A DNA stretch of 64,000 bases, from NCBI GenBank assembly GCA_002633005.1, contig NMRA01000851.1:16093-80092 (forward strand). The letters run 5' to 3'. Below are positions 8,863 through 54,089 of this stretch, one piece after another; within the stretch, counting starts at the first letter, position 1; each line of letters starts with the position of its first letter. The stretch comes from Phoronis australis. Taxonomy: Eukaryota; Animalia; Phoronida. Both the position numbers and the translations under genes were made by a program. The notes under the pieces were generated by a model, which worked only from the letters and a program-made list of their open reading frames with translations, was not told the DNA's origin and did no database searches.

Positions 8863-9044
8863 TTATTTTCTTGAGCTCTTCTCTAATACAACTGCAGTCG
8901 ACTTTATCTCATCCGCAACATACCCGGCGCCCTCAAGCTTGCGACGAACGACTATAGCCGCTATGGCGAAAAGAACGATGAGGGCTAAAGCAACCACGAA
9001 TCCAATGGCAATGTGTGTTGAAGACGAGACGCCTATACTTATTT
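8863..9044 (-). CDS. Terminal coding exon of mosaic receptor: transmembrane helix and short cytoplasmic tail
   Basis: Acceptor ttgcag, phase 1. Translates ISIGVSSSTH-IAIGFVVALALIVLFAIAAIVV-RRKLEGAGYVADEIKSTAVVLEKSSRK-stop: a hydrophobic helix followed by a basic stop-transfer motif. Confidence 0.85.
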
Positions 9045-9947
9045 CTGCAAGGTTATGCAGTAAGCTTAGATATAATTAGGCAGCTCTTTCAAAAGTTGCA
9101 AAACAGTTCCTTGAACGTTTGGATACTGTGATACCACCAATTATCGGCATTATGGAATGATGTACATGTAACAGCGTGTACAGCCCAGGTGGTTCGCTCT
9201 TTATCAGTGGCAGGAGGAGAAGCAGAGTGATAGGATCAAGTACATGTACATGTAGCATAGCGTTACACATTAATTATCAGAACGACGTAACACTAGAGCA
9301 TTCCGATGATTGGTTGGAGTCTCACGATAACACATTCCAATTGGCCAATGTTGAGATACATGCACGTGTAATGCATAGGTGCAGATAGGCCAGGGCTGCG
9401 GCTAATTTGCACGGTCAAGATATTAAAATCTAGGGGTAAGCCAGGCTTGGAGACAGTTTTTAGTTACGTGTTGCATATAGGCTTAGCGAAAGTGGATTAT
9501 TTGTACATGTAATTGTCAACATGTTGAGAATGAGAAAATACCACTTGCTTTTCTGCCGCTATGCTCTTCCTCAAGAAGGTGGCACCGTGTTACAGTTTAC
9601 ATTTGTGTCCTGCTGGTTAGCGACTGAGGAATTGCCTGCGATCTCAGGTAACCAAGCCAGTTTTGCAAAAAAACTTGTTACTTGATGGTACTTTTAGACC
9701 ACATTTTAGAATCTGGAGGAAGTTTGCCTTCAGAATATAATCATGGCTTACTTCAAGCATCGGCAAGGAAGTGGGGGTGGGGGTGAAAAGTACCAATTTT
9801 GTGACTTTTTGCTCATTTTTTCTTTGCCTACTTTACTTTTCACTAGGAGTAAAAGGGTCAAAAATACAACACACGATAACTTCTTTGTCCTCATTTGTCA
9901 GGTTTTGAATGTGGAAAGAGTCAAAACAAGTCATTATTTGCATAAGG

Positions 9948-11636
9948 TTTTCGAAAGAATGAAGAAAAAGTGACAAATCCAACGGTGCATGTTTTGCTAG
10001 GCGAAACCTAGTGAGAACTGTTTATTCTTGTTTTGGCTTGCTATTGCCGCTCACAACACGTCAGACACAATAGTCGTTTTTTACACATCCATGATTTCAA
10101 GGTAAGAAAACAATTCTCACTTTCCGACTTATTTCTGCACCATATGTAGGGTGCTACGACACAGAAATAACGCAAATAGGATCTTTTATAATAGACAAAA
10201 CTGAAACAAAACGTGTTTTAACTGTCATTTTATTTTAAAACTTTACTTTGAATTGTAATTATAGAAGAAAATGAAAAAACCTCCGAGAAACACGATGTCG
10301 CACAAGCAGTTGCAATCAGTATCCCTGCTGCACACCCAAAAGGACAGGAGCATTGATTTGTACATGTACATGTACTGACAAACCTCAAAGAAAGACAACT
10401 GCGTTCGTTAACTGATGAAACTCATGCACGAGTTTTGTTTCTACGTACAGTTGGTGCTTCAATAATGTCTTCACGTAACCATGTAAAATCACGAGAGAAT
10501 ATTAGACACATTTGGACGTAAGTACTCAATTACTTGTTCCAAATAACCAACAATCGAACCGCCCGAACAACTTTTTAACGGTCAAAACTATTGTCGATTT
10601 TGAATTTCGAATAATTATTATAAACAGCTTATTATTTAAAATGACTTATTCTTATTAAAATGACGTAAGCAAAAAATTGAATTTCGTACCTCAAAAGCGA
10701 GGACCCCTATATTAATATAGGGGGCCTCGCTGAACGGAGGCCGGAGAGCGGGGCCTCCTATATTAATATAGGCGACCCCGCCGAAAGGAGGCCGGAGAGC
10801 GGGGCCCCCTATATTAATATAGGGGNNNNNNNNNNNNNNNNNNNNNNNNNNNNNNNNNNNNNNNNNNNNNNNNNNNNNNNNNNNNNNNNNNNNNNNNNNN
10901 NNNNNNNNNNNNNNNNNNNNNNNNNNNNNNNNNNNNNNNNNNNNNNNNNNNNNNNNNNNNNNNNNTTTCGAAAGAATGAAGAAAAAGTGACAAATCCAAC
11001 GGTGCATGTTTTGCTAGGCGAAACCTAGTGAGAACTGTTTATTCTTGTTTTGGCTTGCTATTGCCGCTCACAACACGACAGACACAATAGTCGTTTTTTA
11101 CACATCCATGATTTCACGGTAAGAAAACAATTCTCACTTTCCGACTTATTTCTGCACCATATGTAGGGTGCTACGACACAGAAATAACGCAAATAGGATC
11201 TTTTATAATAGACAAAACTGAAACAAAACGTGTTTTAACTGCCGTTTTATTTTAAAACTTTACTTTGAATTGTAATTATAGAAGAAAATGAAAAAAACTC
11301 TGAGAAACACGATGTCGCACAAGCAGTTGCAATCAGTATCCCTGCTGCACACCCAAAAGGACTGGAGCATTGATTTGTACATGTACATGTACTGACAAAC
11401 CTCAAAGAAAGACAACTGCGTTCGTTAACTGATGAAACTCATGCACGAGTTTTGTTTCTACGTACAGTTGGTGCTTCAATAATGTCTTCACGTAACCATG
11501 TAAAATCAAGAGAGAATATTAGACACATTTGGACGTAAGTACTCAATTACTTGTTCCAAATAACCAACGATCGAACCGCCCGAACAACTTTTTAACGGTC
11601 AAAACTATTGTCGATTTTGAATTTCGAATAATTATA
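9948..11636 (+). repeat. Near-identical ~670-bp direct duplication (9948-10618 and 10966-11636) flanking an N gap
   Basis: The two segments differ by only a few substitutions, and the second starts immediately after the gap. Confidence 0.9.
10697..10825. repeat. GC-rich minisatellite (~51-bp unit) with palindromic core CCTATATTAATATAGG
   Basis: About 2.5 units are visible before the gap. Each has the palindrome inside GC-rich inverted arms, followed by ggaggccggaga. Confidence 0.85.
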
Positions 11637-12221
11637 GCGCTTTACCCAAAAATGGCAAACTAATTCTTGCCTACCTCAGTCAAACGCAAAAAATACATGT
11701 GCACTGATGCGTCCTCAAACTTGTTTGAAAACGAAAACCAATGAATTCCATAATCAAAATCGCAAACCCTTGAAAATGCACTGCAGCATACATGTAGATT
11801 CCTTAAAACACTACATTTACACTACACTTGTTCATGTATGAACTGGTGAAAACACAACTTAACGATCGTACACGTAATGCCAGATACTGGTGAGGACGGA
11901 AGCGACTTGAAAACGCAAAAATACATGCCCTGTTGGTCATATCAACGTACATGTATTTGTGTCACAGGAAAAACTTTTGAAAACGACACGATTGGGGTGC
12001 ACGGTCTACCTTTTAAAAACGCAACCAGACGTTGTTTAAAGGTAACAGACCACCCTACTACCAGTAGTTCACGACTGGTCGCCAACTCGTTTCGGACCGT
12101 TCGACCAATGAATCGTGACCTGTACTGTAAATCAAGACTAAGCATAGATTAGTTCCAACGTCGTACCTTTTTAACAATGATCACGCTATAACGGATGATT
12201 GTCAGACTGTTACATACTTAC

Positions 12222-12293
12222 CGATGGATGTCCCGTTTGGCAAGTTCGCGTCAGCTGAATACCACTCATCGACAGTATCATTTTCGCTGTAGT
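12222..12293 (-). CDS. Stalk exon of mosaic receptor
   Basis: tttcag acceptor, gtaagt donor, 72 nt, phase 1-1. YSENDTVDEWYSADANLPNGTSI, with two N-glycosylation sequons. Confidence 0.75.
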
Positions 12294-12506
12294 CTGAAAG
12301 AAATAAAAAACAGATTAGCACTGGACTACTGTACCTGTCTACATTGACCAAATCGAATATAATAAAAATGCCAAAATTAAAAACACATGTTATAGTTATA
12401 ATAAGGTCAGCTTTAAATAACTAAGCATTTCAAAAACGTCACCTGGCTACGGATCAGTTCAATATTAATCGGCCACACACCGTCTGGTTGTCTTAGCTGT
12501 TGCGAC

Positions 12507-12557
12507 CAAACGATGCGTCAGAATCCAGCGAGATGTTGACGACTACTTCTCGTTCTC
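12507..12557 (-). CDS. Candidate stalk exon with weak donor (or alternative stop-containing exon)
   Basis: Strong acceptor attttcattgctag, phase 1. EREVVVNISLDSDASF, then a weak in-phase donor gtcgca. Read-through gives GRNS-stop. Confidence 0.45.
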
Positions 12558-12630
12558 CTAGCAATGAAAATATAACTACGTACAGAGCAAACGCAGTCCT
12601 TGGAACTGGATCGGTTTTCCCAGCACTCAC

Positions 12631-12699
12631 CATTAACAACGACTTTCGCGTTTTGTCTGGTGTTGTCCTTGAGTGTTAATTCCTCCAAAGCCTCAGGGT
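12631..12699 (-). CDS. Stalk exon of mosaic receptor
   Basis: ttcttattcag acceptor, gtgagt donor, 69 nt, phase 1-1. PEALEELTLKDNTRQNAKVVVN. Confidence 0.72.
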
Positions 12700-13319
12700 C
12701 TGAATAAGAAGAACGTGTACTAACATCTCAGTACAACGCTAGGAGTTCAAATCGAGTACCAGTTGACAAGAATCTGTATGGGTCTGGTTATATACTGTAC
12801 AGTTGCACCTTGCAGTGAAAGAGCACATAGGTGCGTGAGCTATTCCAAACTATAAGTTCCTTCAAGGCGCTCACTTTTGGAGGAAAAACATTCATCGCAC
12901 CGAATTAGTGGGAGGTCATACATATCAAGGAGGACAATGGACAAGTAATCGTCTTCCCCAGATCATAAGCACTCCGTTTAGTTTAGTTCAAGGATTTCAT
13001 GTTTTGCTCACATGTACTTAGTGTCCTGTTGGTGTTGGATTTTAGTGATTTTATAACCTCCAGAGGAGTAAGTCATCGAGATCCGATATGGATCTTGTAA
13101 TTGCTTGGGAATTGATTGATGTAGATGTACACCTTATCCCATACTAGAGTTCACCGAACCGGGTGATAACTTTTAAATCCGGTTTTAAGAAAATACCCGC
13201 GCAAGTCACTTTGTGAACATTTTGATGAACTATATAAATAATATTCATTGAAAGAAAATAATTTATTCATCATTTGTTAGGTCTTATTGGCAGATTTCAA
13301 TGTGTGTACTATTCTTCTG

Positions 13320-14190
13320 TGCCCGGTTGCATGAAACAGTACCTAATTAGGGACTTAACCAAGTTCCCAAACTACGTAGTTAAGTCCGTATAAGGATTTT
13401 GTTTAAGGACTGTTGCATAAAAAGGTCCCACACTCGGTCCTTATTGGGAATGCCCTATATCCGAAGTAGGTTCCCAAAGCCGTGGCTAAGGTCGCTTAAT
13501 ATGGCATAATTATTGTCAACGAGAGAATACCTGCCGCATTTACGTCCTGTGTTCCACCATTTGAATGATTGTTTGAATAAAGTGCACACTCAGTGTGCAT
13601 TATCTGAGAATTCCAGTTTTCAACTGCTGTTGAGAGAGCGGACGATGTATTGTGGCCGCCCACGCGAATGCAAATTAAAAACCAGTAAGGCGAACTGGTG
13701 AGAATACCATAATCTCCGGTAGGAGTCGCCGCACTTCCCAACGCGCTGTTAAATTCGTCTGCCCTGCGTAATAAGTGAGACGTGGGGTAAGTCGTGGCAC
13801 TATAGTAATCGATAAATTCAGTTTACGATGGAAGTACTACATGTACTTCAGTGGGTGAGATCACGCATTTCCTGTTCGACAACTCTAGCTTCTTTCCAAC
13901 GTTTCTAACTATCATGAATATCCCAACCCTTGAACATCTAAATCTTGTTTAGCTCACTGCCGCTAAACGTCGCGATCGGATTTGTTATGTCACGAAAAAT
14001 TCTTTTTTCAACAATATGAGCTTGATCGGCCATTTTATTGCTAGGAACTCAACTTAGAAACTTACTTTAGGTAACCCCAAAAGTTGAGTCTCTATTTAAT
14101 GCCTAAACTAACTGGGAACTTTTCATGCAACAGTCCCTAAAGACCAAAGGACATTCCTAACATTTTGGTACTGTCTCTTGCAACCGGGCA
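13320..14190. mobile_element. Non-autonomous PIF/Harbinger-type DNA transposon
   Basis: TIR tgcccggttgcatgaaacagtacc / ggtactgtctcttgcaaccgggca, with CTG/CAG (CWG) flanks. Confidence 0.8.
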
Positions 14191-15896
14191 CAGATCTTTT
14201 CCTGAGCATACGATCTCATTTTGTCTGAAACGGACTATATAACCGCAAAGTAACGCTGTTCTTGAGAACAACTCTATGGCTTGCGAGAGTTGACGGCAGC
14301 CAGTAGGTTACATGCAATGGCATAAATGAGATAGCTTTGTACTTACATGTACCAACCTGTTCCCGTTTATCAGTCGCTGTAATGCAAGCATACAAATTAA
14401 ATTCTCCAACGTGAGACGAGAAGCGCTTCGATCCGTTAGAACATATCGTACCTCCAGTTAGTTTAGTGTATGCCGTAAGCACGTGATAACCCGTTACTTC
14501 GCCGAGGTTCTTTATCTCTCCGTTTAATTACCTAATGCTTGACCATGGATTTGGTTTGACAACGAATGGTCCTCATTCAAGGTCAAGTATTGGCAGATCA
14601 TAACAATCAACACGCGCCTTACTTGATGGCAAAATTGGGAACCGGGCCAGGCTTCTAGCACATCTACATGTATACCTGACAATTGGCACACATCACACAT
14701 GTGCTACTGTATAATGTATTCTCCGCGGTACCATTGGTGTGCAATATGCTTACACATTGAAAGAAGCTCCCATGTTGCAAGCTATTCAATCTCCTGTTTC
14801 ATGTAGCAAACCGAAGTCACTTACAGTGTAGTTCTACGGGTTTTTGAACAGCAGGTCATCAATTGAAAGCAGGTGAATGTTTTACTATGAGACTGACTTT
14901 TTTAGTAATAATGTAATCATAACCAAAAACTTATAGACCCCCTTCATTTTAGGCTAGGCCCGCGCATGAGACAAAATTCTGGTTATTTATGAGCCCTNNN
15001 NNNNNNNNNNNNNNNNNNNNNNNNNNNNNNNNNNNNNNNNNNNNNNNNNNNNNNNNNNNNNNNNNNNNNNNNNNNNNNNNNNNNNNNNNNNNNNNNNNNN
15101 NNNNNNNNNNNNNTTCATAGTTCTTTGATGGATATCCATGGACTTCATTTCAAGTCATCTATTTATTAGCTGACTCTGCTTTCCTTTTACAGATTGATTC
15201 AATTCAATCTGTGGCTCATATACGCCATCTTTGCTGTTTTTAGTGTTTTTTGTGGTACCCGCCTTTCTTTTACCCAATCCGCTCTAATCGTATGTGTGTT
15301 CCTACGGGAGTGAGGACTTGGTGATGATTTTCAGATGTTTCCGGCTACTGTGTTACATCATACATGTAGTTTGAGTTTCGTTTCTCGCATAAATCATTTA
15401 CAGGAACTTCGTTAAATTTGGCAAGTCTTCTAATGAAAATGACAACATAATATGGCGACTTTTGAATGGATCCAACTACCATTCTCTGTGGATGTATTAT
15501 TTCTCCCAACGTCCTATTCATCTTCAAATTTCATTGACATGTTTCGCAGCAGCGGTCTAAAGTTTGCTGAAATTGGCGTTGTAGTTCCACATCAAGTCAT
15601 ATCCCCGAAACGTCCGATATTATCGTGCAATTACTCTTACATGTCCTTATAATACCGACCGAAATCGGTGTATATTTCTGATACGCTCGCTTCTCTACTA
15701 TAATTCTTTCGTTTCTTATTGAATCGGAGTGATTACATGTAACTGTTTTGACCCCCAGATGCTGCCATCATCCTCTCACTTTGCTTGCGAAGTCAGGGCT
15801 GCACATCCCGTTTTATTTGATACAAAACTGGCATACCACAAACTTAACCTGAATTCATAAATAATTGCCTGACTTCCCATGTTCTCTGCGGCCTGT

Positions 15897-17394
15897 AATT
15901 AGTCAGATAACGAGTAGCCGTGTCGCACCCAATTTCTGCGTACATGTACCAAAGCGGCCCAGGCTAGAAAACAGTCATTCTCACATCACGTCTATTCGCG
16001 CTCCGGGGAAAACAGTACATGTACAATAACCCTTGAGGAGTGCTCTTTTGGGGAATACCCTGCCCTCGTAGCGTGTTTTAATGATTCTGAAACGCGTGTC
16101 GATTGACGTCATATGTGGTTTACGTACATGTACATGTAGTTGCTAATTAGAATTTACACATTACCAAAGAAGGCCGATTATAGAGTGGTTAACTTAAGCG
16201 GTGAGATTGTCGTTGTCGTAAGTAGTTCTTCTGCGGCTGTAATAATTGAAAGGGATGAATAGGTTGAGGTCTTACCCATACACCTGACGATGCCAGTGAA
16301 ATGTGAAATAGCTAGGATGCAAGAATATTTAAACGGCGACTGAACCCTATTTTGATGAATTAATCGAATCCTGGCTCAATCACCTGCTGATACGACATTG
16401 GCGTCAGTCTTGAGCGGCAAAAGCAGAAATCAGCCACAAACTCGTACTCCCTCTGTCAAAGATTGAATATTATGATTCTTGGTGGGTGATCACTGAGTTG
16501 CCGGGTAAATCCTATGAAGCTCAAATCACGCTTAATTATTCGTGCAAAAGTCTTTGAAAAGAATTTTCACAATGTCCTCCAAACATAGGCGGCGCACCGT
16601 GCACATAGTCGGCGCACCATACAGTAAGTGGCCGGAAGTTTTAGCCCCGCCCTTTTTTCAATGCTGCACCGCCCATGCCAAAGTTTTGAAGATTTTTGGG
16701 GTTTAACCGTGCTTCAGTGAACTGTTTATATGAATCACTTGGAATATTTCTAATTAGGCAGATCACGAGTAGCCGCATCGCACCCCATTTCTGCGTACCA
16801 AAGCAGCCCAGGCTAGGACCCAGTCCTTGATCAAACCACGTCTGTGTGTGCTCTTGGAAAACAGTACAATAACCCTTGAAGGGTGCTCTTTTGGGCTAAC
16901 CCTGCTCTCGTAGCATGTTTTAATGATTCTGGACCGCGTGTCGATTGGCGTCAAATGTGGTTTAAGTAGCTGCTCATTAGAATTTACAGAGAAGGCTGAT
17001 TACATTTACAGCACCATGTGTTTGTGGTTAACTTACACGGTGAGATTGTCCTTGTAAGTAGTTCTTCTGTAGCTGTAAATAAAGGGATGAATACATGTAG
17101 ATTGAGGTGATAGTTTTGCCGGTAAACCTCACGACAGGAGAGAAATGTGAAATAGCTAGAATGCAAGAGTATTTAAACGGATACTGAACCCCGTTTAGAA
17201 GTCTTTGGGAAGAGTTTTTAAAATGTCCTCCAAACATGGGCTGCGCACCGTGCACATGGGCGGCGCACAATATGACGCCAAGAGCTTTAGCCCCTCCCTT
17301 ATTACAGTGCAGCGCCGCCCATGCTTTGAAGCTTTTCTGGGGTTTGTTGTACTTCAGTGAACTGTATAGATAAGTCGATTGGAACATTTGCTAA
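15897..17394 (+). repeat. Head-to-tail diverged tandem duplication (15897-16753 and 16752-17394)
   Basis: Both copies start aattag.cagat.acgagtagccg and end ggaa.att..ctaa. The first copy has an extra ~200 bp at about 16350-16548. Confidence 0.85.
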
Positions 17395-18354
17395 CATGCC
17401 AGAGCAGATTTGGAATCATTTTAAGCATCTCGTACCTCCCGTAGTTGTGAGTACAGGTAACCAGATTCAGAATTATCAAGACATTTCACGTTAGACTACG
17501 CCCTGACAGCTAGATTACCTAAAATTAAGACGACACGGCAGAAAAAAACGAGCACATATCAAGTATTAAATGGGGGTTGACGTAACCTCGGCAGTCATTG
17601 TTTAGATTTTCCACAAAGAAAAACAATGCCGTGATGTTAACTATTTTAAATTATGTCAATATCATTGCGAGCCAACTTTTTTCAACAGCCGTGCGCTTGA
17701 AGCAAAAACAATAGACACTGGTCTGCCCTATTTCACCAGTATGCTAGTCATACAGTTTGAATGCAAGCCAGCAACGTTAACGAAAGTCAGTAACAATTGA
17801 AAAACGCACTCCGAAACGACACAAAAATAACTTTACATATTTCTTAAACTTATTCCAATTAAGCACCGATTTGCCAGGAAACAGACAAAAGACCATATCC
17901 GCATTATACTTCTGCATCAATTTTGCCGGTTTGTTTTCGTAAAAACGCCGGCGTAAAACTTTTCCCGAGGAAAATTGAATGATTCATGCGTGTCCCCTTC
18001 CCTTAGCAGACACCCCATGAACCAGTAAGAATATCACCAAGCATTGCCCTGTTTTCGGTTAGAGATTTGTCAGATATCTGCAAAGAAAATGATCTTTTCA
18101 TATTGACGCTCTCTACTGTAGTGACAGCACGAATTTCATATCGGATTGGTCTCGACTCAGATTTGGGGGACAGGAATTCAATTACTACTCAGTGGTCCAT
18201 TAAACCATTCACACCATGGTCATGCATGAGTGAATCCGTTTACCAAAAATGTTGGTATGATATTTTAATTATTCCTTCTTCAATCTGTGTATTTTTAATC
18301 AAGAAATATATGCAAAATTCCAAAAAAAATCATTGTGACGTGATCAGTGAGCCT

Positions 18355-18608
18355 GGGACCTGCTTCAAGAAACTGACTTAATTTTGTTTTTGATTTCAGT
18401 TTAAGATTTTTCTTAACTTTCAAACACTGAAACGTCCACATTCGGTAAGAAAGTCAAAATTAAGACAAAACTTATGCCAAACACATGAGTAAAACTTATG
18501 ATTTCTTTCTTGAATTGGCTTTGAGACAAATAAATCTTTTATTCCAAATTTTACACAATAATAAGAAATGTCTTAGCTACAGGTAAGTCTGTTTTGTCGG
18601 AACGGGCC
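18355..18608. mobile_element. Harbinger-like MITE (~250 bp)
   Basis: Termini gggacctg.ttc.aagaaactgacttaa ... taagtctgttttgtcggaacgggcc. An inverted homolog lies at 30464-30711. Confidence 0.7.
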
Positions 18609-19506
18609 TAAGGTCTCTATCATTGTGTAATTCTACACCAGTCGTAATGTTCTAAAAAACTGAGTCTTATGAAAGTTGTACATACATGTATGAGCAGATT
18701 ATGCAGTAATAGCAATCGAACAGACAATATTTCAATGTTTACATTTCATGAAGTCACAAGCACAGGTTCGTTCGTCAGACACGGATACATAGACGGCGTC
18801 ACGGTGTAGCAAACGATCAGTTCAAGGGGTGCGCCGTGCCAGTCATCCCATTTTGAAGAATTTTCGTTCGATCCGTGGCAGAATCGGGAGATTTTGGGAT
18901 TGTTTATCCAAAGATTACATGTAAATGCACTCGATGGGGAAAAACGATTGTGCTGTGCCATTGCTGGGGACGAGCATGAGCCTCAATATCGTATTGTGAC
19001 TTAAATAACGAACGTCAGTCTATTCTTATTCAAATGCGTGTTATACACAGATACGTCAAACTCCATTCGTAGAAAAGGTAATGTAGATGCCTCCCAAATA
19101 GTTTGAAATCGCGACCGCAACCGACACAGAGGCTTGAGCTTGACACAGGAACGAAATAGTGAATCGATCGATCTCAACAGTACAAAACTTTCACAAAAAC
19201 AATATTTTGGAACATAAAAGACAGAAATGAGTATCGTTATCCATTAAAATCCATTTAACATCATTATAATTAAATATGATTGTTCCTGACAATCCCACTC
19301 GAAATTCGAAGAAATAAAATCAGTGTCGGCTATTCGCGACTGGGCTTTGACAGGCTAAAAACTTCGGTTAGATCTACATTCGAAGACACCCATTATCCAA
19401 CACTTAAGTGGTTAGAAAATTAAATATTGATTCAATAAATATGCTTTAATCTCTACTCTGAAATCAGAACTGTCTGCAGACAGAGTAGGCTCCAACTAGG
19501 TGTCAC

Positions 19507-19645
19507 TCGCAGAAGATGCTGCTGCGGGAGTGTCGAGTTCGTACGGCATCAAACACGCAGTCTGCCAATAATGCGAGATCTAACTTCGTACTGCCTGCTT
19601 TTTCTTTGACCTCAGTGACCCATTTAACCCCATCTCCACACTGAC
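19507..19645 (-). CDS. Candidate exon of uncertain status (QCGDG...LLADCVFDAVRT...IFC)
   Basis: ttttgtag acceptor in phase 1, open frame, gtgaca donor. The donor is phase 2 and I found no matching phase-2 downstream exon. Confidence 0.3.
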
Positions 19646-21262
19646 CTACAAAATCACCTCTATCCACCGCTGTATATACTGTATACGTGTTCAACGTCTT
19701 TCACGTGGGGGAAACCAAAAATCTCAAATTTTTCTTTAAAATTCAAAATTCCTTAACTATTTCCCAAAATAAGTGCTTGCTTAGTTAGACTTTGGGTTAT
19801 AAATTTACTATAAGCTGTGCAAATCTACTAAAAGTGGACAGGTCCTTTGTGGGAACGCTTTAACATGAAAGCAGAGGATTAAATGGCACTTGTCAGTCGC
19901 TCCCCAGATTAGTACATGTATAAGTTCACAGTGGGAAATGTATGAAGCATGACGTCCTTGTTCATCCATCGATAGTTCAAAAGGTTTGTGTTTGCTGGAA
20001 GTCTTTGGTACATCCCACCGCGAAAGAGTTAACATTTCCTGTATGATAACAGCAAAAAGTCTAAAACGCCGTTTATACCACTACGCTGGACCGCCCGCAT
20101 TGCACGGGATCTCTAGGCAGCTCTGAACGCCTGTCCAACATAAACCCGATTGCCGTCTGGCGGAGTCACGAATTTCAGTATGGCACGTCTATTTCGAGTC
20201 AGCTATTATATGATATCCCTATTCCAAACAGAATGAAACCAACCAATGAACCGCACACCTATATTTGCATCCATTACATGGTGAAGAAGAGGAATATCCC
20301 TTCATTTCTATCCGTAAATTCAATTTCATTGTTAAAAGCAAACCAATGACAATATTTTTTTCATTCCAATGTCTTATAGAAACGATGCCCACATGGACGC
20401 ATTAGAATAAAATATCAAATAGCTAATATGAAAGTGTATTTAATTGTCTTGTCTTTCCCAAAGTTACATGTACAGCTGAACCGCATTCAGAATTATCAAG
20501 GCGATCCGGGTCAAACTGCGTCCACACAACAAGATAACCCAAAAACGAACACGGCTGAAATGAAAATCGATGGATAGTGCCCTCTGCAGAGGTCGGCCCA
20601 CAAAGTTTATTTATACAATAACATGTGACCAATGGCTGGCTTCATAAGATTCTGACGTCATTAGGTTGACTGAAATCGGGTCATTTTAAACTAATCTACC
20701 ACCGTTCGGTGAAATGCCTCAAGATCGAGACTGCTTTGGCCAATACCGGAAGTTCGCCCGATATGGAGTAGAATAGGCTTAATGTGGAGCTGTTGAATTT
20801 CCATTAGAAAATGACTGTCATCACTGTAAACTGTCCGAGCACACATTCCACTGATATTTGTATTTAAGTAACTTATTAAATGTAGGAGTCCCATGCCAAG
20901 TCAAATTCTACAAGGAATACTTTTGAGCATGTTCGTACTTTGATTATTACGCTTTATCTGCCAACAGTTCTGACTGTTAAGTCGACACGATTAGTCAGAA
21001 GTTTAACCAGGGTTAACAGATAATGAATTTAGCTTCGCTCAGTCGAAGAAACTCCACGTTACGGTAAAAGCCTGAAGCAGTTGAATTTTAAAAATCAAAA
21101 TACAGAGCAAGCTTTACCGCTATCAAAATCGTTTAGTAAAATTGGAGAAACTGTAATGAAGCCAATGAAAGATCATTTTACTACCATTATAACATGCAAG
21201 AAAAATAACGTTGTTTTGGATGTTTTTGTGTATATGTTCAATGTTTTGGAAAATTCACTCAC

Positions 21263-21463
21263 TTGGCCACACTTCGACTTCACACAACGTCAAATTTGCG
21301 TTCCGCGGATTCTGGGATTCGATTCGCACAGTTTTGCCAGTCAAAACGTTTGTGCAGGGGGTTTCTACAACACGTCCCTTTGGCACGCCAAGGCTGCTAA
21401 AGCAGAGATTTTTTGTACCATCATCCCGTAACACGTATGCATTAATGGGAGGCACCGCTACAT
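21263..21463 (-). CDS. F-type lectin (FTP/F5-8C-like) domain 2, C-terminal half exon
   Basis: 201 nt, phase 1-1, tttaag/gtgagt. ...NLCF...TPCTNVLTGKTVRIE...LTLCEVEVW. Confidence 0.9.
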
Positions 21464-21629
21464 CTTAAAGTAAAATATAACATACATGTATAACACCGTT
21501 AGCGATGCATCGTATTCTGGCTATTGCAAACAACAGTGAACTGTTGAGATCACGTCAGTGGCACGGGATTTGCAATCACACACATTTTGGTAAAGGCGAC
21601 GAAAATGGTTGACACTGGTCTGCTAGGGT

Positions 21630-22130: not shown

Positions 22131-22334
22131 CTCGACTGGACGAGATAGTTAGACTAGCTATTTTATATTCGCCCTCCAAATCCACTTCCCACCAAGTCTC
22201 GTTTATGCTCATTGCGTGCGCGCAAGAAAGGAACATCTCAACATGGTCTCGGCTGCCGTCTACGGCCAGTTTGGATTCTGGTGAAGTGTCGCCTGAAGAC
22301 TGTCTTGTCGGTTTCCCTTGTGATATAGGTTTCG
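22131..22334 (-). CDS. F-type lectin domain 2, N-terminal half exon
   Basis: 204 nt, phase 1-1, tttttgcag/gtatgg. ISQGKPTRQSS...LAVDG...CAH...WWEVDLEGEYKIASLTI. Confidence 0.92.
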
Positions 22335-22807: not shown

Positions 22808-23086
22808 GTGTACATCGAGGAATGTTGCAATAGTCCCAACGCCTCTGGCCGGATTCAGGCCCATAGAGGTAGCACCAGGGGCCACCAATGCTGCGATCGG
22901 CATTCCGGCAAAAATTGTAGTCTAGTTCTCTTAAATATACGTCTCTGGTGAAAGAACCTAACCCCGATAGTTTGTTCGGTGCCCAGTGCCACGGCTGACA
23001 CAAGTGATCGTTTTTAGATACGGATACTTTTCCTCTGAAGGCAGTTCCAAGGTCATCCTCTTTGCATGACTTGTTGGGAGATAAAT
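22808..23086 (-). CDS. Kringle domain exon
   Basis: 279 nt, phase 1-1, gtaagt donor. C..GTAFRGKVSVS..CQPW..NFCRNAD..GPWCY..WDYCNIPRC. The acceptor (cggtag) is less certain. Confidence 0.92.
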
Positions 23087-23583: not shown

Positions 23584-23736
23584 CTTGGCAGATCTTAGAT
23601 GCCTGCTTCTTCCACGGGTGACAACTTTGACCTTTCAGACTGCCCTCTTTGCAATCCCGAGTTCTTGAACGGGTATGGGTCTCCTTGTCACACGGGCCCC
23701 AGGGCGTCCATTGCCCAAACTGTACTTCATATGTGT
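23584..23736 (-). CDS. Thrombospondin type-1 repeat exon
   Basis: 153 nt, phase 1-1, atttcag/gtgagt. FGQWTPWGPCD...RSRTRDC...C...C. Confidence 0.9.
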
Positions 23737-24854: not shown

Positions 24855-25043
24855 CGTCTGTACACTCGGGTGGGTCACAAAATTCGTAAGTGCTGGAAGT
24901 AGGGTTAGGGTCCACATAGCACCACAGCCGGTTTTGTGTATCGGGAGAATTATGGCAGTCACTGTTGTCGCGGCATTTCTTACCCGTCCGTGTTACTTTA
25001 AGTTTCTCCGAGTGTGCGTAGTTATTACTCCGATCGTAGCAGC
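24855..25043 (-). CDS. Shortened kringle-like domain exon
   Basis: 189 nt, phase 1-1, ttgtaag/gtgagt. CYDRSNNYAHSEKLKVTRTGKKCRDNSDCHNSPDTQNRLWCYVDPNPTSSTYEFCDPPEC. This frame is absent from the ORF track. Confidence 0.85.
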
Positions 25044-25497: not shown

Positions 25498-25704
25498 CGA
25501 TAGGCTCGAAATAAACAGCTACCTCACAAAGCGATAAGTTGTCTTCCGTCGTCGAGACCTTCAATGTGTTGCCATACGTATCTTTTTTACACTTAATTAC
25601 CGTGCCTTTGTTTACTGGAAGTTCGCCTTCCCAATGGAAACATTCCGTTTGTATATCGTCTTCTGTGTACACTAACAGCTTGATGTTGCTCAGTGGTCTC
25701 CGGA
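25498..25704 (-). CDS. F-type lectin domain 1, C-terminal half exon
   Basis: 207 nt, phase 1-1, ccttgtag/gtgagt. RRPLSNIKLLVY..ECFHW..IKC..YGNTLKV..LSLCEVAVY. Confidence 0.9.
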
Positions 25705-40171: not shown

Positions 40172-40214
40172 ATTTAGCAAAATGATTCTTGCAAATCTAC
40201 AGCAAAACACTCAC

Positions 40215-40513
40215 TTGGGTGGTCAGCCGCAAACGCTACTTCATAATGTTCGTCCCTGCAGTTACGCTGTCGTTTGAACTTCACCCTGTCCCTGTACAAT
40301 TTATGGACACAATAGCATGTTTTGTCTCCTCTGTGGAAAACAGCGTACAGCCGTTTATAACCTGCTCCAACTTTGCATTCCAGGGCGCATTCGGCGAGTG
40401 TCGATGTTCCAGGTCGCTTTTTCCATCTCTGGCCAGGTAACGTTAACGTGTAACAACCTAAAGCTGCCAATTTATTACTCGATATAGAGTGAAACTCACT
40501 GTCAGTAACGGAC
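40215..40513 (-). CDS. WSC-like domain exon, connection to the gene unclear
   Basis: Open frame LGCY..TLAECALEC..YA..TCYC..NC..YEV, with a gtgagt phase-1 donor. The acceptor is either gtgcag (40513, phase 2) or ggcag (40463, phase 1). Confidence 0.65.
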
Positions 40514-42345: not shown

Positions 42346-44952
42346 ATCGAGTGCTGTAACACGTACATGTACATGTAGGCTTATTCAGTGTGTTTAGACG
42401 GTGCTAATTCCATCAAGCCAACATTTAATACGACTGACCCAGGTTTAATGTGTCCTCAATCAGTGATTATTCAGTGAGAATATTGACCAACCCTTGGTTC
42501 AGTTGGTTGTGGCTCAGATACATGTATGCCTGCTGCATTCTCGTGCAAGTGGGCCTCTCGTTCATGTGGCCTCAAAGCATACGAAAGTTGGCCAGGAATT
42601 CGAATTCATTGTCTGATTCTTCTAGATATACTGTAGTACTTGAGTGTGATGGCCGCATTCACCAGGGGATTTACATCAAACTGTTACCAAACATTGATTG
42701 ACAAAAAACTTAAGGATTACCGGATATATCGTGCCGGTAAAAATATTTAATTGCATATGTTATGTCTAGTTAATGTGGACTGTTCATTGGTCAGTTGCAT
42801 AAGTCAATAAATGAAAACCGACCTCCTATTTTATAAAGACCTGGGTATTCATCAACTAAGTCGTTCGCAGAATATTCAAACAACATTACCCAATTAGATT
42901 CATCATTGTTTTTAAACAGTTTGAACCCCAGAGCTGTCCTATGATAGGGGGTGGTGAGGGCAGGCCTGTAAACCGAACTCCTCCCCCTGCCGAAAGGATC
43001 CAACCCCAGCCCGGCTATCCGCTGCCGTAAGGTGTAGTTCAACAACAACAAAGATGTTTTCGTTTTGTATACATAACTTCCCTGCACTTCCCGTTGTTCA
43101 AAACCAGACTTTAAGCCGCATTTTCCTGCAGAAAACTCCAACATGTCAAAAGCTGCTAGTTTACAGTATTCTTAAACAAGTAGGAATAGGCCTATCAACA
43201 AATCTTTGGCAAATAAAAACAGACTTCTCATGTTGACAGGGAATTAGTATGGAGGCCGACCTTGCAAGCTTCATACTAGCAAAAGACTCGACGGAAGAAT
43301 TGTCTAACGCTAGAATTCTGGAAAAGGATACTGAAGTGGTTTTAGACAGAAAGGTGAACGTACACTTTAAGGAAAATGGGAACAACCCCATGGCAAAAGA
43401 TCAAGCGATTATCGATGCTTTCTCCATTGTAATGCATGGAGTGGTGACTCTGAAAGATTGGCAGAAGATAACGGTTATCCAGAAAAGTATACCTGTAACG
43501 ATACTTTTACATGCGCAGCATTGGAAAATGAAGAACGTCATCTATAATTCGGCTTTAGTTCAAAGTGAAATTTGGGACAACATGTCTAACAAACCGACAT
43601 TGTAAAGGAAATAAAATATGTTATTGCTGCTGAAGTTAGGTCCAACAAGGAAGAACTATCCCATACCCTTGCTCAAACAAGTAGTAAATGCCAACGACGT
43701 CCGACAAAAATACATAGCAGTAGCGTTCAGAGTTTTCTTACAACTCACTTTCTATTCAAATGCCTGCATCCTAGTTCTAGGAAAAGTAAAAAAAATGAAA
43801 CATATTTAATTTAACTGCAAATCAGTCACAATTTCAAAAACGTTATATATATGTATTCATTGGATGGCCCCTCATGTGAATGGCCCGGGCCGTCGTCCCG
43901 TCACCCCCTGTCCTTCCGCAATCTACTGGTTGCAAGTAATAATCTTTCGCGGAATACAGCGGACAAGCTTGTAGTTGAATGCATTAGGAACTCCCTTGGT
44001 GTCGACGTTGCCAACTGCCCAGGCCAAAGATATTTATAAATCTGAATCAAATGCACGTGTAATGTAAGTGATGAACAGAATGGCGTTCAGGCACTCCTGC
44101 ACGCTTATGTTTAAAGAATACGAATCTGTAGACCCTCTTCTCATGTGCGCCTTACTCGTTGTGCTGGGGCAAGCCACGAAGCATACATCTTCATGGGAGC
44201 AGGTTTGAGTGGAGTCTCACTGAAACTGACGCGTGCTGCGTTTCCCACTTTCCCTTATGTATTGATAACTTAATGAGACTTTGCCTGCACAAGGTTGCTT
44301 CCGAAAAAGTACAGGGTCAACGTCAATTTTTCGAAATGTCATCAAGAGGTCTACTGTTTTAGAAACGCGTGCCACCTTTGCGTAACCCTGACTACTGGAC
44401 TGCATTTCTCCAAGTCAAGTGGGTATTTTGCTCTTTCATTTATTGCTTCTATTTAATCCGACTTCTTGATATAATTTTGGATGAAAAAACGAAAGAAACA
44501 AGACAATTCGTTATTTAGTATTTTCTCGGCTATCTTCCTAGTAGAAAGAACATAACCTTGTCTTGAAACATTACGCTCTATTTACCGGAGAAACAAATTA
44601 AACGGTGCACAGAAAATTAGCCATATCAGACAAAATTTCTCAAAAACAAAATGCAGGGAACGTGTGAAACAGATTTTCTCTAGTTGGGGTCGTTTCATAA
44701 TCTGAAGCCCAGCTCATGCACCCCGTATAGCTCACGTGGTTTTGAAATCAAACACATGGTAGCATTGTGTTTTGACAAGAAAAGTTTCCAAATGCGGAAT
44801 TCAGACTGACGATTTTGGTTTTGTATCCAGCGCAAGGTTAACTTTCAGACAATTTACCTAATTCAAGTATGTTTATTGACTAACGAGCAATTTTAGTTAT
44901 TTTGTTGTGAAAAACACGACTAGGGGATCGCCTGCATTCCACCGTACATTAA

Positions 44953-45735
44953 AGGAGAGGCAACATTTTCCACATGATTTAGCAAAAATAAGGTTCATTC
45001 ATTATCCCAGACATAAGTTTCACGTAATTACAGTTTTTCACAACTAATTTTATAATTCGTCCTCTATTCCGGAAGGACCTCGCTAAAAAGCAAGACTTCG
45101 CGAGATTAAGTGAGATATTGCCGTGTATTTTAAATGAAAACACGTGACTTTGACTAGGTTTTAGCTACTGTATGTCCTAGCGTAGGTCCTAGCGTCTACT
45201 GAACGCACGCAACGCCTGCTAGACACCGAATGAAGAGGACAGTTTGTCGTGCAATGAACAGATCGGTGAGCCAAACATTGATAAATTTATTGAGGACTTC
45301 TCTAAAGTATTGGAGCTATTTAGAAGGTCCCAGGTGGGTAGCGAGGGAGTCACACAGCGGAATGTAAGCAGTTTGTGTGCTCAGGTAATCATCCAGTGGG
45401 GGAGTATTGCGGGACACTAGGGCAAGTGGGACAGTTGTTCCTCTATCTGTGAGACGACAATGAGTACATCCCAGCACGCAGCAACTGTGTGGCAAGTTGA
45501 CTGACTTGTAAACAAAATGAAACGACGACCGAACTTATCACAACCGGCAGCTCTCACAATTGGTCTTCATGAAAAGAAATTGGCGCGAAATTCTTGCCTC
45601 CCTAATCGCCACTTCCGGAGTAGCAAACGAGTAATTGTATCAATGACAAAACGCTGTAATTACCTGAAAAATATGTCTGGGATAATCAACGAACCTTATT
45701 TTGGTAAAATGTCATTTAAACTGTTGCCTTCGCCT
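44953..45735. mobile_element. Kolobok-like non-autonomous element related to 58848-60103
   Basis: ttaa|aggagaggcaac ... gttgccttcgcct|ttaa with ~130-bp imperfect TIRs. The internal segment is homologous to ~59640-60103. Confidence 0.82.
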
Positions 45736-47145
45736 TTAAGTGACAGTGGCTATATTTAGTTGGTGGCCACGGGCGGTGCAGGCTACGATTCAAACAAATA
45801 TTCACACCAACTGATACCCAAAAAAACTCTTTCAGAAATTTTATGTGTGTATTCTGAGGCACGTTTGTCACTCTGTACACATACGCTTGATCGTTGCATA
45901 TATTCTTTGCGCCAAAATCCCGGGCTTCACGAAACAAGGTTAAAAGATCTTTGAAATAAAGAACTTGCCACATAATTTATATCATTTTGTTGCGTACCCT
46001 GAGTAATCTACAAGTACGATACAAAGATTCAGCACTTATTTAAATGTTTCTAAAATTGGGGTCATCATTCATCAGATTTAGTCCCCAAAATATAAGAAGG
46101 TCAATTTTACTCAAACCATGATTTTCCAAACCTAACGAACATTTGAATTATTAATCATTCCTTATGTAAAAAATAGTGAAACGAAATGTTCCCAAAAGTT
46201 GCCATTTCATGCAGTCACTATTAAGGCTATGCAGGGTCATGGAAAATGTTCACTTGGAACATTATATCTCAAAAGCGGCTGAACAATTTTATGCAAAATT
46301 ATTCTAGACACTGCTAGGCATTGTACGTTCTGTTCTTACATGTACATGAGGGGTGTCAAAATTCTTTTATGATTTTAATTAAAAAATCTTGCACTGCATT
46401 AAACGTAAACGAAACGATAATTTAGAAAAAAATATCGTGCTACTGAGTCTGTTATTTTGCTGTCAGTGTAACTTTCCTTTTTCGCAATATTATGCAAAAA
46501 GTCACGATTGCCTGACCATATTGATGACAGTTTGGTAAAGACTCGGCAATCAAACTCAATCAGTGCCAAGATTTTTCCTCAGACGGTTGAGCGACCCGAA
46601 TCTTACTCACTACGTCAGGAAGGATCAGCCTTCGGTCTGGCACCAACAGTCGATGTTTTGAGACCGATTACTCAGGGTAGTACATTTATCATATGCTCAA
46701 ATTCGTTGATGCTCTCCAATGCTAAATCTTAAATTTGCGCTTCACAGGCGCACGCGACTACATGTAAGTTGTTTTCGCATTCGTATTTAAAGGAAATTTA
46801 AATACGTTTCAGCAAATTCAAATGAAAGAAAAAGCCTTACTGTGAGAAAAGTTACAATAATATGAAGAGTGGAAGTCACGAAGTTGGTACTTAGCGTTTT
46901 GCTAGTAAACTGCTTTGTTTTGAAACTTGGTACCCCAGATGTTCATTTTGAGTTACTGAATTAGGCACAGCACCATGATCCAGAGAGAAATTTCTTAACC
47001 TAAAACAGCTGTTTTGACCTCAAGAGAAAACTTGACTTGAGTCTTTCTAATTTCAGAAACCATATACTGTACCTTTTGCTGAGTTGAAATCAACACTTTT
47101 GTAGTTATTTGGCTGAATACCGGGTTTGGTTGTTTATATACTCAC

Positions 47146-47406
47146 GTTTGGGAGAAGTATCCGGTGTAAGTATTTGAACGCTGTGGACCGTGAAGGGATA
47201 ATCATGGAAGAGGACTTTCCACCACAACGGTTCCTTGCTTTCTTCGCTTAGGCGGAAATGGTTCAAACAGTAGTACCCATACCTTTCGTCTCGGTCGTTA
47301 GGCCAAACACCGTCATTGGCTACCATAACGTTTTTTCTTCCAAAGTGATTTTTTTCGTCTTCTTTGTGGGACGACATACTTGATTTCTTGTACACCGCCA
47401 TGTTAC
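47146..47406 (-). CDS. F-type lectin domain 1, N-terminal half exon
   Basis: 261 nt, phase 1-1, ttttgctcag/gtgagt. NMAVYKKSSMSS...ANDG...CLNH...PLWWKV...VHSVQI. Confidence 0.87.
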
Positions 47407-47646
47407 CTGAGCAAAACAGGTTACATTTCAATAGCTTTCGTAGGGAATAACGTTTGGTTGAGATGGATTAACGTAAATAAAGTGTCTCAGTCTACCTGCT
47501 CCTTGACAAGACGAGCTGTGATATTTGCCCATAGAAAAGAATGACTGTTCTGATCAACATTTGACAGCATGCTATGTCTGTGACGCAATTTCTTCCATTT
47601 CTGGGATAATTGCTGATATCAGGACGAATTCTTAATCACCAGGTAG

Positions 47647-47797: not shown

Positions 47798-48058
47798 CTT
47801 TATAATATTTAGCAAGCATGACGTACGAAAAGCCAAGACCTCCACAATTTTCCTCCCAGTTCCCACTACATTTGCTTATACAAGGACCGTCGTCGTTTAG
47901 CTTGTTCGAAGTGGAAACAGCGTAGCCACATGTGCACATGCTTCCAAAAGAGACAGCAGCCCATCGCCAAAAATTTTCCGTGCAGAGTGCTCTGCATTCG
48001 GACATCGTACTGACGTCACGCATTCTATCCGACAAACTACCTGTGTAGCAGCCTTCGT
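47798..48058 (-). CDS. WSC domain exon
   Basis: 261 nt, phase 1-1, atttcag/gtgacg. EGCY..TMSECRALC..AAV..GSMCTCG..C..KCSGN..ENCGG, with eight cysteines. Confidence 0.92.
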
Positions 48059-51663: not shown

Positions 51664-53928
51664 TTAACTAAAATGAAAAGTAATGCCTTATGCACGACTT
51701 GACTGGTTCCTGTAGTTGTAGAAGTTGTAGGCATAACACTGCTACTCCCTGATTTCCTGACTGGCGCCGTAGATCTCTCGATGTTTTCCACCATTTTTGT
51801 CATGTGTAACACTCTCAAATATGGCGTCATATTGCCAGAACGAGCAACATGTATGTGAGTCCCGCGCGCCCGGTCTATAGTATTATGATGTCTATGGAAA
51901 TTGCTGGGTACTCTTAGGATGATTAGGATTGATTGTCCAGGATCCTGACGGACCTTATTCTATACAATGTAACAGAATCAAATAAGTATCAGTTTGAAAA
52001 TACTTTTCTTGTGAGTCTCACCTTCAAAGAAAATGTTTAAGTCAGCAAAACTATTACTTTCCATTTACACGCCCCCTTTTTCCGAATAAACGTCAGGGCG
52101 TTTATTACGTGTTTCTAAAACGCTTGAAAAACTCGAGTCTATGGGCTCATCTGCAGAAAATCCCGGTACACACATGACATATATTAGAAAGACACAATTC
52201 AATTGGATCTCCACTTAACTATGAAAAAATTTTAGGGTAATGTTGTTTATGACCGTCATCTCAGCTATTAAAATAAGTCTGATTTAACCTTACTCAGCTA
52301 AAATGTCTCAGTGTTTTCGGAAAATCGTTCTTTGAACTTAGACTAAATCACCTTTTGTCCACCGCATTTTACTGCACTCAATAAGAGAAAGGTAAAAACG
52401 TCGTAAAAACTGTCTTCGAAGGATGCAGCTAGACCAGTAACAATTGTATCCACATTGTTTCAGCCACGGCTTCTATATTGTGAATTAAGTGATCCATGAA
52501 ATTAGATTATACACCCTGCTGGAAACTACATCTCAATGAATACATCAAAGGTTGGGGAATTGTTGACAAAATCGCAATTATATGACAAATTTTGAAAATT
52601 CAAGAACCCACTTAGTGTAATTTTACCCATCATTTCTGATGTTACAGTCTAGATTCCAGCGGTTTTAATGACACAATGAAAATGGAAAATAAAGCCCAAA
52701 TGCTTTCAAGCCATTTTGGATATGCTGAGGTAAGAAACAGTAATTACCCTAAATACGAGATCTACTGAAGTTAAACCCTCTGCTTGTAGCTATCCCTCTA
52801 TTGCGAAAGGGTGTGGATAAAACTGGTCCAGTTGACCACGTGACATTGGTTAAATGTACAAGACGTTTACAGCATGAACAATAGTAATGAGGAAAAGGGA
52901 AGCCCTTAATACTGTTACTTGCTTGAAATGCAATTATTTGTAAAGACCAAATGGTTTTAACACCTCTTGAAAATACTCACACAGTGCATCAACTTCAGCT
53001 AATGACACTTCCATTTTCGAGTCAATTTTCTCATAATCAACGCTTTTTCTTTTCAAAAACTGAACCGTCAATCAAAATCTGGCACCGTGACCACCTATAT
53101 AATGTTGCAATATCACAAACAAATGATAAACTCTAATCGTGCAAATGCATCTACCAACAATTCTAGGATTTGCAGATTGTACATGTACCAAAAGCCTGTT
53201 TTAGTCACGTTAAATAAAACCGATCCTGCTAAGTACACGATATGAAACACTATAAAAAAAACAATTATGTAGGCCTATTGGTCAATTCCGAAGCAACATG
53301 ATATATTCATTATTCTGCAACAAATTTAATTAAGTAAATAACGCAAGATAACCAAGCTTTCTAGTACTGCCACAGCTAATAGCAGAGATAGTCGTCCAAC
53401 TAACAGAAAGAACTAAAGTTCATAGTCAAATGACGCCTTTGTCCTTTCTAGTACTCAAGCAATGGAAGGAAACAGCATGAAACTGTACATGTATGCCAGA
53501 CCTACAGTGTATACTCAAATACGTATGATTCAAAGAAAGTGTTCAGCTACAACGTTTCGCGATCCGTTCTCCACCATTGGCTGTACTTGTTTGACTTCGC
53601 CGGTTCCACAGGATCAACAGCGTAAGTTAGCTAATCGGTGTCCGGTGGAGACTTGCTACTTACGCATCGCCGCTGTGTACGTGGGACTTCTCCAAGGAGT
53701 AACAATTGCTTTTTCGTCTGCGCATATGAGATTTCTAAACAGACGCTTATTTGAGGGGAGGACATTATCTGTCCACTCCGTCAATGTGGCTTCACATCAG
53801 GGTCCAACAAATCATTTGATCTTCAAACAACGAATGATGCATACAAGGTTCTAGTGTTCTTAGTTAATTCCGTTTAAATTGCTCGAAATAATCAACGTGA
53901 TATAATAGTCATGATATAGAATACTTAC

Positions 53929-54003
53929 AATCGGTTTTCCCAGAGGCGCCGGAGACGATTTTACAGGTCATGGAGAAGATCCCTGCAAATAACCACCAAT
54001 GTG
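53929..54003 (-). CDS. Probable signal-peptide exon of mosaic receptor
   Basis: tttttatatttcag acceptor, gtaagt donor, 75 nt, phase 1-1. HWWLFAGIFSMTCKIVSGASGKTD. Splicing to 48058 gives TD-Y-EGCY, the usual WSC start. Confidence 0.6.
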
Positions 54004-54058
54004 CTGAAATATAAAAAACGTAGCAATACAACAGGGACACTCGAATCTCTGTATATAC

Positions 54059-54089
54059 CCACAAAGCCATTATCATCCGCCAGGCACAT
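54059..54089 (-). CDS. Possible first coding exon (MCLADDNGFV)
   Basis: ATG with a phase-1 gtatat donor and a 55-nt intron. Weak support. Confidence 0.25.

Follow-up and report, generated by a model that had tools for sequence, protein, structure and literature searches.

The stretch analysed here, called the window throughout, consists of 64,000 nucleotides from the phoronid Phoronis australis (assembly GCA_002633005.1, contig NMRA01000851.1, positions 16,093 to 80,092). A gene of 15 exons was reconstructed on its minus strand, which extends from about position 54076 to 8863 (45.2 kb) and carries 2541 coding bases, defining a single open frame of 846 residues. In a first-pass annotation, made from the letters alone, the region had been described as one gene for a mosaic membrane protein, with in-frame exons joined by phase-1 introns. 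This description is largely borne out by the present analysis: all 14 introns are in phase 1, every internal exon is a multiple of 3 in length with AG and GT ends, and 12 of the 14 junctions are supported by RNA. The modules are of class 1-1, in agreement with the signature of exon shuffling already pointed out in the annotation. An exon-shuffled mosaic of this class is a known kind of gene; the notable part is a domain, supported by RNA, which is nested within the former binding loop of a lectin domain.

Gene structure and transcript evidence

The modules were recovered by reading the minus strand and by scanning for phase 1-1 exons, and three exons were added from RNA. These three are easy to miss, because the frame remains open (741 residues) when they are left out. 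The modules listed in the first-pass annotation were found again, but its domain order lacked the nested 249-nt exon (40463-40215) and two stalk micro-exons (17072-17037 and 14376-14347). The corrected order is WSC-FTLD[PAN/WSC insert]-mini-kringle-TSP1-like-kringle-FTLD-stalk-TM, where FTLD indicates an F-type lectin domain and TM the transmembrane helix. Both FTLDs are encoded by two exons, indicated as a and b. The exons are reported below in the order of transcription, together with the evidence for each of them.

53929..54076, minus strand: putative first coding exon, 49 residues, possible signal peptide; in-frame phase-1 donor with a weak score (1.7)
47798..48058, minus strand: WSC exon, 8 Cys; Pfam WSC E=6.3e-11, 42.8 bits
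47146..47406, minus strand: N-terminal half of FTLD1 (FTLD1a), 1 Cys; Atlas fucolectin/PF22633 half-domain clusters at 0.94-0.95; RNA about 30 per bin in X1 and X2
40215..40463, minus strand: nested PAN/WSC-like exon, 249 nt, 6 Cys, net charge +9; RNA joint and loose ends; Pfam WSC E=0.017
25498..25704, minus strand: C-terminal half of FTLD1 (FTLD1b), 3 Cys; BLASTP to FTLD2b E=4e-6; RNA joint to the next exon
24855..25043, minus strand: shortened kringle-like exon (mini-kringle), 6 Cys in 60 residues; Pfam Kringle E=0.021; RNA joints
23584..23736, minus strand: TSP1/PTN-MK-like exon, 4 Cys; Pfam PTN_MK_C E=9e-4, TSP_1 E=0.19; RNA joints
22808..23086, minus strand: kringle exon; Pfam E=1e-14; PDB kringles; RNA joints
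22131..22334, minus strand: N-terminal half of FTLD2 (FTLD2a); PDB FBP32 E=7e-10, eel lectin 1k12 E=1.7e-5; RNA joints
21263..21463, minus strand: C-terminal half of FTLD2 (FTLD2b); PDB FBP32 E=0.063; RNA joints
17037..17072, minus strand: 36-nt stalk micro-exon, Ser/Thr-rich; joints with 107/97 reads (X1) and 66/52 reads (X2)
14347..14376, minus strand: 30-nt stalk micro-exon; joints with 97/89 reads (X1) and 52/58 reads (X2)
12631..12699, minus strand: stalk exon L1; RNA joints
12222..12293, minus strand: stalk exon L2, acidic, with 2 N-glycosylation sequons; RNA joints
8863..9044, minus strand: exon for the TM helix and cytoplasmic tail; loose ends before 12222, 80+50 reads; hydropathy peak 3.18

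The RNA data consisted of three raw-read runs and one contig set (X1-X4), matched by species label, which were mapped to positions 30000-47450 (X1-X4) and 12150-25750 (X1 and X2 only). Ten of the supported junctions were seen as split-read joints and two as loose ends matching the neighbouring exon, while the two 5'-most junctions, connecting the first exon to the WSC exon and the latter to FTLD1a, lie outside the supported set. The joint between FTLD1a and the nested exon (47146 to 40463) has canonical ends and was found in 44 reads of X1 and 57 of X2, and also, on an allele differing at the first base, in 9 and 15 reads, respectively; none was present in X3 or X4. At the other border of the insertion, loose ends at the FTLD1b acceptor (68 reads in X1 and 68 in X2) map with one mismatch to 40217-40246, the end of the nested exon. 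Nine consecutive joints, each covered by 35-107 reads (X1, X2), then lead from FTLD1b through the mini-kringle, TSP1-like, kringle, FTLD2a and FTLD2b exons and the two micro-exons to the two stalk exons, and the strandedness of the reads on the joints of 12150-25750 is that expected for a minus-strand gene. Loose ends past the last stalk exon (80 reads in X1, 50 in X2) coincide without mismatch with 9015-9044, where the TM exon begins. By these joints and loose ends, a reading in which the exons are split among separate genes is ruled out from FTLD1a through the TM exon, and the joined structure anticipated in the annotation is confirmed for this part, which is one gene.

Reads crossing the ends of the 30000-47450 stretch are 2 of 10,589 in X1 and 2 of 9,564 in X2, which fits splicing at 47406, without naming the partner exon. 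The gene is expressed in a sample-dependent manner, being on in X1 and X2 and off in X3: depth on the FTLD1a bin is 32.6, 29.5 and 0-0.06, respectively.

Two additional candidate phase 1-1 exons within the large introns, 43125-42823 and 32708-32511, were rejected: they have no Pfam match, their RNA depth is near zero or unstranded and repeat-like, and neither takes part in a joint among the 15 of 74 joints listed. The direct links of FTLD1a to the insert, and of the insert to FTLD1b, leave no room for either of them in the major form. A cluster of 17 reads in X2 (agreement 0.66), with loose ends at the FTLD1b acceptor, corresponds to 36420-36449 (minus strand), a stretch derived from a repeat, which ends in a GT donor at 36420 and is a cryptic exon within the large intron.

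Nine coding differences were seen in the RNA, five of which change a residue; three of these five fall within short stalk exons (17072-17037 and 12293-12222). At position 24905 the assembly is contradicted by all reads (104 of 104 and 70 of 70), which replace Asn with Thr in the mini-kringle; the mismatch is either an assembly error or a fixed difference.

Domains of the predicted protein

The nested exon encodes 83 residues with six cysteines, an even number, and a net charge of +9, to be compared with values between -6 and +3 for the other exons. In the major transcript it is spliced between the two halves of FTLD1, across introns of 6.7 kb and 14.5 kb; a direct FTLD1a-FTLD1b skip was not found among the 12 of 37 loose ends listed, where a few such reads could hide in the mixed 17-read cluster of X2. 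The encoded module falls outside the WSC family (PF01822), since it contains six cysteines, not eight, and scores 15.8 bits (E=0.017). Its structure model has a strand-helix-four strands topology, and the top Foldseek matches are HGF N/PAN, a Sarcocystis apple lectin, plasminogen PAN and yeast Wsc1 (probability 0.97, E between 0.075 and 0.3). A fold of the PAN/apple/WSC type is weakly supported by this model, and the module was named PAN/WSC-like, not a WSC member.

As for the host domains, FTLD2 is recognized as an F-type jelly-roll through the PDB matches of its first half to FBP32 (E=7e-10) and to the eel lectin 1k12 (E=1.7e-5); its second half matches FBP32 only weakly, and the Pfam match of FTLD2a to PF22633 (E=1.7e-5) is under the cut-off. 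FTLD1 is recognized more weakly than FTLD2, by Atlas clusters, a global alignment and a predicted assembly, and a meaningful PDB match was obtained for neither of its halves. FTLD1b matches FTLD2b by BLASTP (E=4e-6), none of 1000 shuffles scoring as high, and when the two halves of FTLD1 are joined in silico, their global alignment to FTLD2 reaches z=6.5, again with 0 of 1000 shuffles as high. When the two halves were modelled by ESMFold2 as a two-chain complex, an ipSAE of 0.62 was obtained, versus 0.01 for the best of 3 controls, with a contact agreement of at least 93% and a partner pLDDT of at least 73. Among 78 solved complexes, 51 attain the mark used for such models, compared with 2 of 108 mismatched pairs; split-domain halves can pass it through likeness to solved lectins. 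On this modelling, the FTLD1 halves are predicted to form one jelly-roll.

In both FTLDs the first half contains a single cysteine and the second half contains three, and their positions coincide in the alignment. In the eel agglutinin two clamp disulfides are found, Cys50-Cys146 and Cys108-Cys124, one of which joins the halves (PMC5712786). Judging from the aligned positions, both FTLDs keep the cysteines of the clamp and would form the same bonds. Given the one-plus-three split, if FTLD1 folds at all, the disulfide joining its halves has to span the insert.

The location of the insert was evaluated relative to the fucose-binding site, for which the motif H-X(24-26)-R-X-D-X4-R/K (His52, Arg79, Arg86) is reported (PMC5712786). 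A relaxed form of the motif was matched neither in FTLD2 nor in FTLD1, with or without the insert. At the ungapped 1k12 offset, Cys37 and His39 of FTLD2 fall on Cys50 and His52 of the eel agglutinin; His52 and Asp81 are thus kept, and Ser and Pro are found at positions 79 and 86, so that FTLD2 has lost the fucose triad without any insert. At the same offset, the FTLD2 intron falls in the Asp81 codon, within CDR4, the loop bearing the fucose-binding Arg79 and Arg86 (numbering of PMC5712786). The FTLD1 intron holding the nested exon lies within a few residues of this point; canonical FTLDs have their fucose-binding arginines in the loop occupied here by the insert. The cation motif h2DGx is canonical in FTLD2 (AVDGS) and variant in FTLD1 (ANDGV). 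No adjacent cysteines corresponding to the vicinal Cys82-Cys83 sugar-contact pair occur in either FTLD; the pair is lost also in some active FTLDs (PMC5712786). Departures from the fucose motif such as these suggest lost or changed sugar recognition (PMC5712786). The glycan recognition proposed in the first-pass annotation is therefore weakened, although the FTLD fold and a WSC domain are present: both FTLDs lack the His-Arg-Asp-Arg/Lys motif and a module occupies the FTLD1 loop. Since the motif is missing in both domains, canonical fucose binding offers no basis for recognition of glycans, which might yet proceed via the WSC domain or an altered pocket.

The Pfam scan covered 23 translated stretches, two of which scored above the curated cut-off. 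The N-terminal WSC module (42.8 bits versus 27.8) contains the eight cysteines of PF01822, and the full kringle (55 bits versus 34.3) belongs to PF00051 by its gathering score, its PDB matches being the kringles of plasminogen, HGF and prothrombin. The names given in the annotation to these two modules are confirmed, but the two modules lying between FTLD1 and the kringle remain under the cut-off. The mini-kringle scores 15.5 bits, keeps six cysteines and is similar to the full kringle in a pairwise comparison (E=4e-5); its structure model is poor (pLDDT 59), with weak kringle/FN2 fold matches, adding little. The exon 23584-23736 contains four cysteines and scores 12.4 bits for TSP_1 against a cut-off of 21.6, falling short of the six cysteines and gathering score of PF00090; it is nearer to PTN_MK_C (E=9e-4), likewise under the cut-off, and by its sequence is TSP1-like only.

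At the C-terminal end, the helix indicated in the annotation was found again as a single TM helix, at about residues 800-819, with a Kyte-Doolittle peak of 3.18. If the last exon is read through, the tail consists of 27 residues with one tyrosine. An alternative donor at 8923 scores 4.7, against 3.2-7.8 for the 12 donors supported by RNA; were it spliced to the acceptor at 8630 (score 5.1), a tail of 8 residues without the tyrosine could result. A catalytic or recognisable signalling domain was not found in the tail. At the N-terminal end, the start had been placed at 54089, but that ATG lies in a frame other than the one splicing to the WSC exon, which opens at ATG 54076. The putative first exon contains no 19-residue window with hydropathy above 1.4. 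An internal acceptor at 54003 scores 3.8, and makes other first exons possible, formed by 54003-53929 plus a short upstream first exon. A single-pass cell-surface protein, putatively of type I, is predicted.

Within the stalk, the 36-nt micro-exon 17072-17037 is occasionally skipped (2 reads in X1, 5 in X2). A minor donor at 12443 (minus strand), used by 9 of 97 and 8 of 84 of the reads entering exon 12293, fits an extension of L1 (12699-12443) with a stop before the TM helix; a secreted isoform or a decay target is possible.

Interpretation and comparison with known proteins

The locus likely encodes a cell-surface adhesion or tethering receptor, not a classical fucose sensor. The fuller explanation favoured here, to which slightly less than an even chance is given, is that of a lineage-specific gene, expressed and built by exon shuffling, whose predicted single-pass product is likely a receptor for adhesion or tethering and has no catalytic role. 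Within it, a basic PAN/WSC-like module is placed by splicing in what was once the fucose loop of an FTLD, which is predicted to fold around the module. A symmetric exon would have entered the phase-1 intron bisecting FTLD1; the lectin domain, having lost the fucose residues, would have become a pedestal, presenting the insert where the sugar once bound. By analogy with the N-terminal PAN domain of HGF, which binds heparan sulfate, acidic glycans or matrix proteins may be the ligands of the +9 insert, to whose binding the WSC, TSP1-like and kringle modules would add avidity. Since the tail is only 8-27 residues long, signalling, if any, would need a partner.

Several observations weigh against this explanation. 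FTLD1a alone has no Pfam, PDB or HMMER match and fails to align significantly with FTLD2a at the local level (165 of 1000 shuffles score as high), and its Atlas recognition value of 2048 is below the 2300 mark, the nearest clusters being at 0.94-0.95. The complex of the FTLD1 halves was folded without the insert, and is hence silent on their closing around it. The fold assignment of the insert itself is weak, with a pLDDT of 64 for the single-sequence model, a best Foldseek E of 0.075 and a Pfam score under the cut-off; its Atlas matches, between 0.84 and 0.88 (PAN 0.85, WSC 0.84), are at the level of leads only. A heparin site does not follow from net charge alone, and no orthologue was found in which the basic patch could be compared. 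In addition, two arginines directly following the insert in FTLD1 could partly rebuild a basic pocket.

Another explanation, proposed in the annotation, is a glycan pattern-recognition receptor, possibly an immune one; its FTLDs and WSC domain would bind microbial sugars with non-canonical specificity. This explanation is judged unlikely, in spite of the two FTLD folds with His52 and a cation motif (canonical in FTLD2, variant in FTLD1), the canonical WSC domain, the expression differing by sample (on in X1 and X2, off in X3) and the FTLD expansions of molluscs, hemichordates and amphioxus, which have been linked to immune functions (PMC5712786). Both FTLDs depart from the fucose motif, replacements of this kind suggest that sugar recognition is lost or changed (PMC5712786), the binding loop of FTLD1 is occupied, and the tail holds no recognisable signalling domain. 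Alternatively, the insertion may have broken FTLD1, leaving its halves as a decaying or merely structural spacer in a young mosaic gene under weak constraint. The strong divergence of FTLD1a, the five residue-changing differences out of nine and the failure to find homologues point in this direction; however, FTLD1 retains its four structural cysteines together with the core strands, pairing of the halves is predicted, the insert is carried by the major transcript across introns of 6.7 and 14.5 kb, and three of the five residue changes are in the stalk, so that a broken domain is regarded as quite unlikely.

Kremen1 and Kremen2 have the architecture kringle-WSC-CUB-TM. In a co-receptor of this kind, kringle and WSC would bind a secreted protein ligand and alter how a partner receptor is trafficked or how active it is. 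The pairing of kringle with WSC, to which attention had been drawn in the annotation, is found in this predicted single-pass protein, whose tail is short and non-catalytic, but the comparison does not extend further: no CUB match was obtained among the exons scanned, two FTLDs, a TSP1-like module and a mini-kringle are present, the order is different, with WSC and kringle non-adjacent, and the PDB searches, at the thresholds used, revealed no sequence link to Kremen. A Kremen-like co-receptor is held to be quite improbable. A gamete or allorecognition surface protein, similar to the oyster bindin F-lectins or to their egg receptors, was rated as very improbable. In oyster bindins a recombining intron divides the FTLDs, and the fucose triad is missing from some isoforms (PMC5712786), and sample-specific expression would be in keeping with such a role; on the other side, only 9 coding variants were seen, none of them clustered at the FTLD pockets, and no variation in repeat number was observed.

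The adhesion or tethering receptor favoured here shares parts with several known systems. Among F-type lectins with mosaic architecture, loss of the triad is found also in Drosophila CG9095 (furrowed/CG9095) and in some oyster bindins (PMC5712786), whereas the fucose motif, absent in both FTLDs of this gene, is present in canonical members such as the eel agglutinin AAA. MsaFBP32 has an internal intron near Glu123-Cys124 (PMC5712786), while the internal intron falls here in CDR4. With HGF and plasminogen the protein shares a PAN-type module and kringles in one chain, and the top Foldseek match of the strongly basic insert is the HGF N-domain, a high-affinity heparan-sulfate site (PMC9348577); it differs in the placement of the module within a lectin loop, in its predicted membrane anchor and in lacking a protease-like domain, and the insert matches the HGF fold only weakly (E=0.075). 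The acquisition of a symmetric exon in mid-gene is a known minor route of domain gain, accounting for less than 10% of events (PMC2926785), and domain insertions are found in 20% of multidomain proteins (PMC13114784). The phase 1-1 exon in mid-gene position is shared with the former cases (PMC2926785); in this gene the intron lies inside a ligand loop, with a nested domain as the result.

Homologues were sought with individual exons. Word searches among longer proteins confirmed none of 2 candidates for FTLD1a, none of 21 for the nested exon and none of 9 for the kringle at E<=1e-8; these blanks are weak, because only single exons served as queries. In a phmmer search of FTLD1a over 1.84 billion representatives the sole match was a repetitive protein, rejected as due to chance, and tblastn of FTLD2a against plasmids and phages gave no match. 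The annotation had recognized no named gene with this domain order, and no such gene or family was found in the literature searched; the same is true of a WSC/FTLD/kringle architecture, a result which, the main survey of FTLD partners being outside the search, does not establish absence from print. For the databases of domain events, ECOD group 390.1.1 was taken to be PAN-like and 10.32 to be galactose-binding-like. In the event table of PMC13114784 (35,481 of its 48,551 events), none of the 19 rows of group 390.1.1 has a 10.32 host. The terms WSC and kringle do not occur in the main texts of two F-type lectin reviews (PMC5712786 and PMC12221842), no FTLD-nested domain is described in the passages of these reviews that were covered, and PAN, apple, WSC or kringle domains are not mentioned in the passages covered of PMC12297450.

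Exon shuffling usually places modules end to end, while in this gene one module lies inside another, at the ligand loop of its host. The locus thus offers a case, open to direct testing, in which a grafted domain has taken the place of a binding site, alongside the loss of the host's ligand residues. Split FTLDs of this type are missed by Pfam, because their halves, 83 residues apart, score under the cut-off, and surveys of the F-type lectin family may undercount them. A broader proposal, which seems to us nearly as likely to be right as wrong, is that the FTLD with its PAN/WSC-like insert is an undescribed composite module of invertebrates: the phase-1 intron in the fucose loop would act as a socket, into which a symmetric exon replacing the sugar site is plugged, and the three-exon unit would be shuffled as a block into unrelated receptors. 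If the unit does recur across invertebrate receptors, it would represent a new building block of recognition proteins.

The surrounding window

The window has a G+C content of 39% and is composed of animal-type DNA with repeats and six N gaps. A direct duplication of 670 bp (9949-10618 and 10966-11635, 98.7% identity) flanks the N gap at 10826-10965 and is likely an assembly artefact. Fragments of a LINE-like (long interspersed nuclear element) sequence are located at 4805-1611 on the minus strand, with a match to Exo_endo_phos (E=1.4e-4) followed by pieces of open reading frame across an N gap. Dispersed repeat families, with 74-91% identity, are represented by the pairs 27955-29190/38632-39870, 34709-35600/50731-51667 and 44949-45742/58841-60103, and attract numerous unstranded RNA reads that originate at other places in the genome. 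Two open frames of 141 and 164 residues, at 63773-63351 and 59591-59100 (minus strand), have no meaningful Pfam match and are probably mobile-element remnants; the second overlaps a dispersed repeat. The palindrome TACATGTA, typical of several marine invertebrate genomes, occurs 57 times in the whole window.

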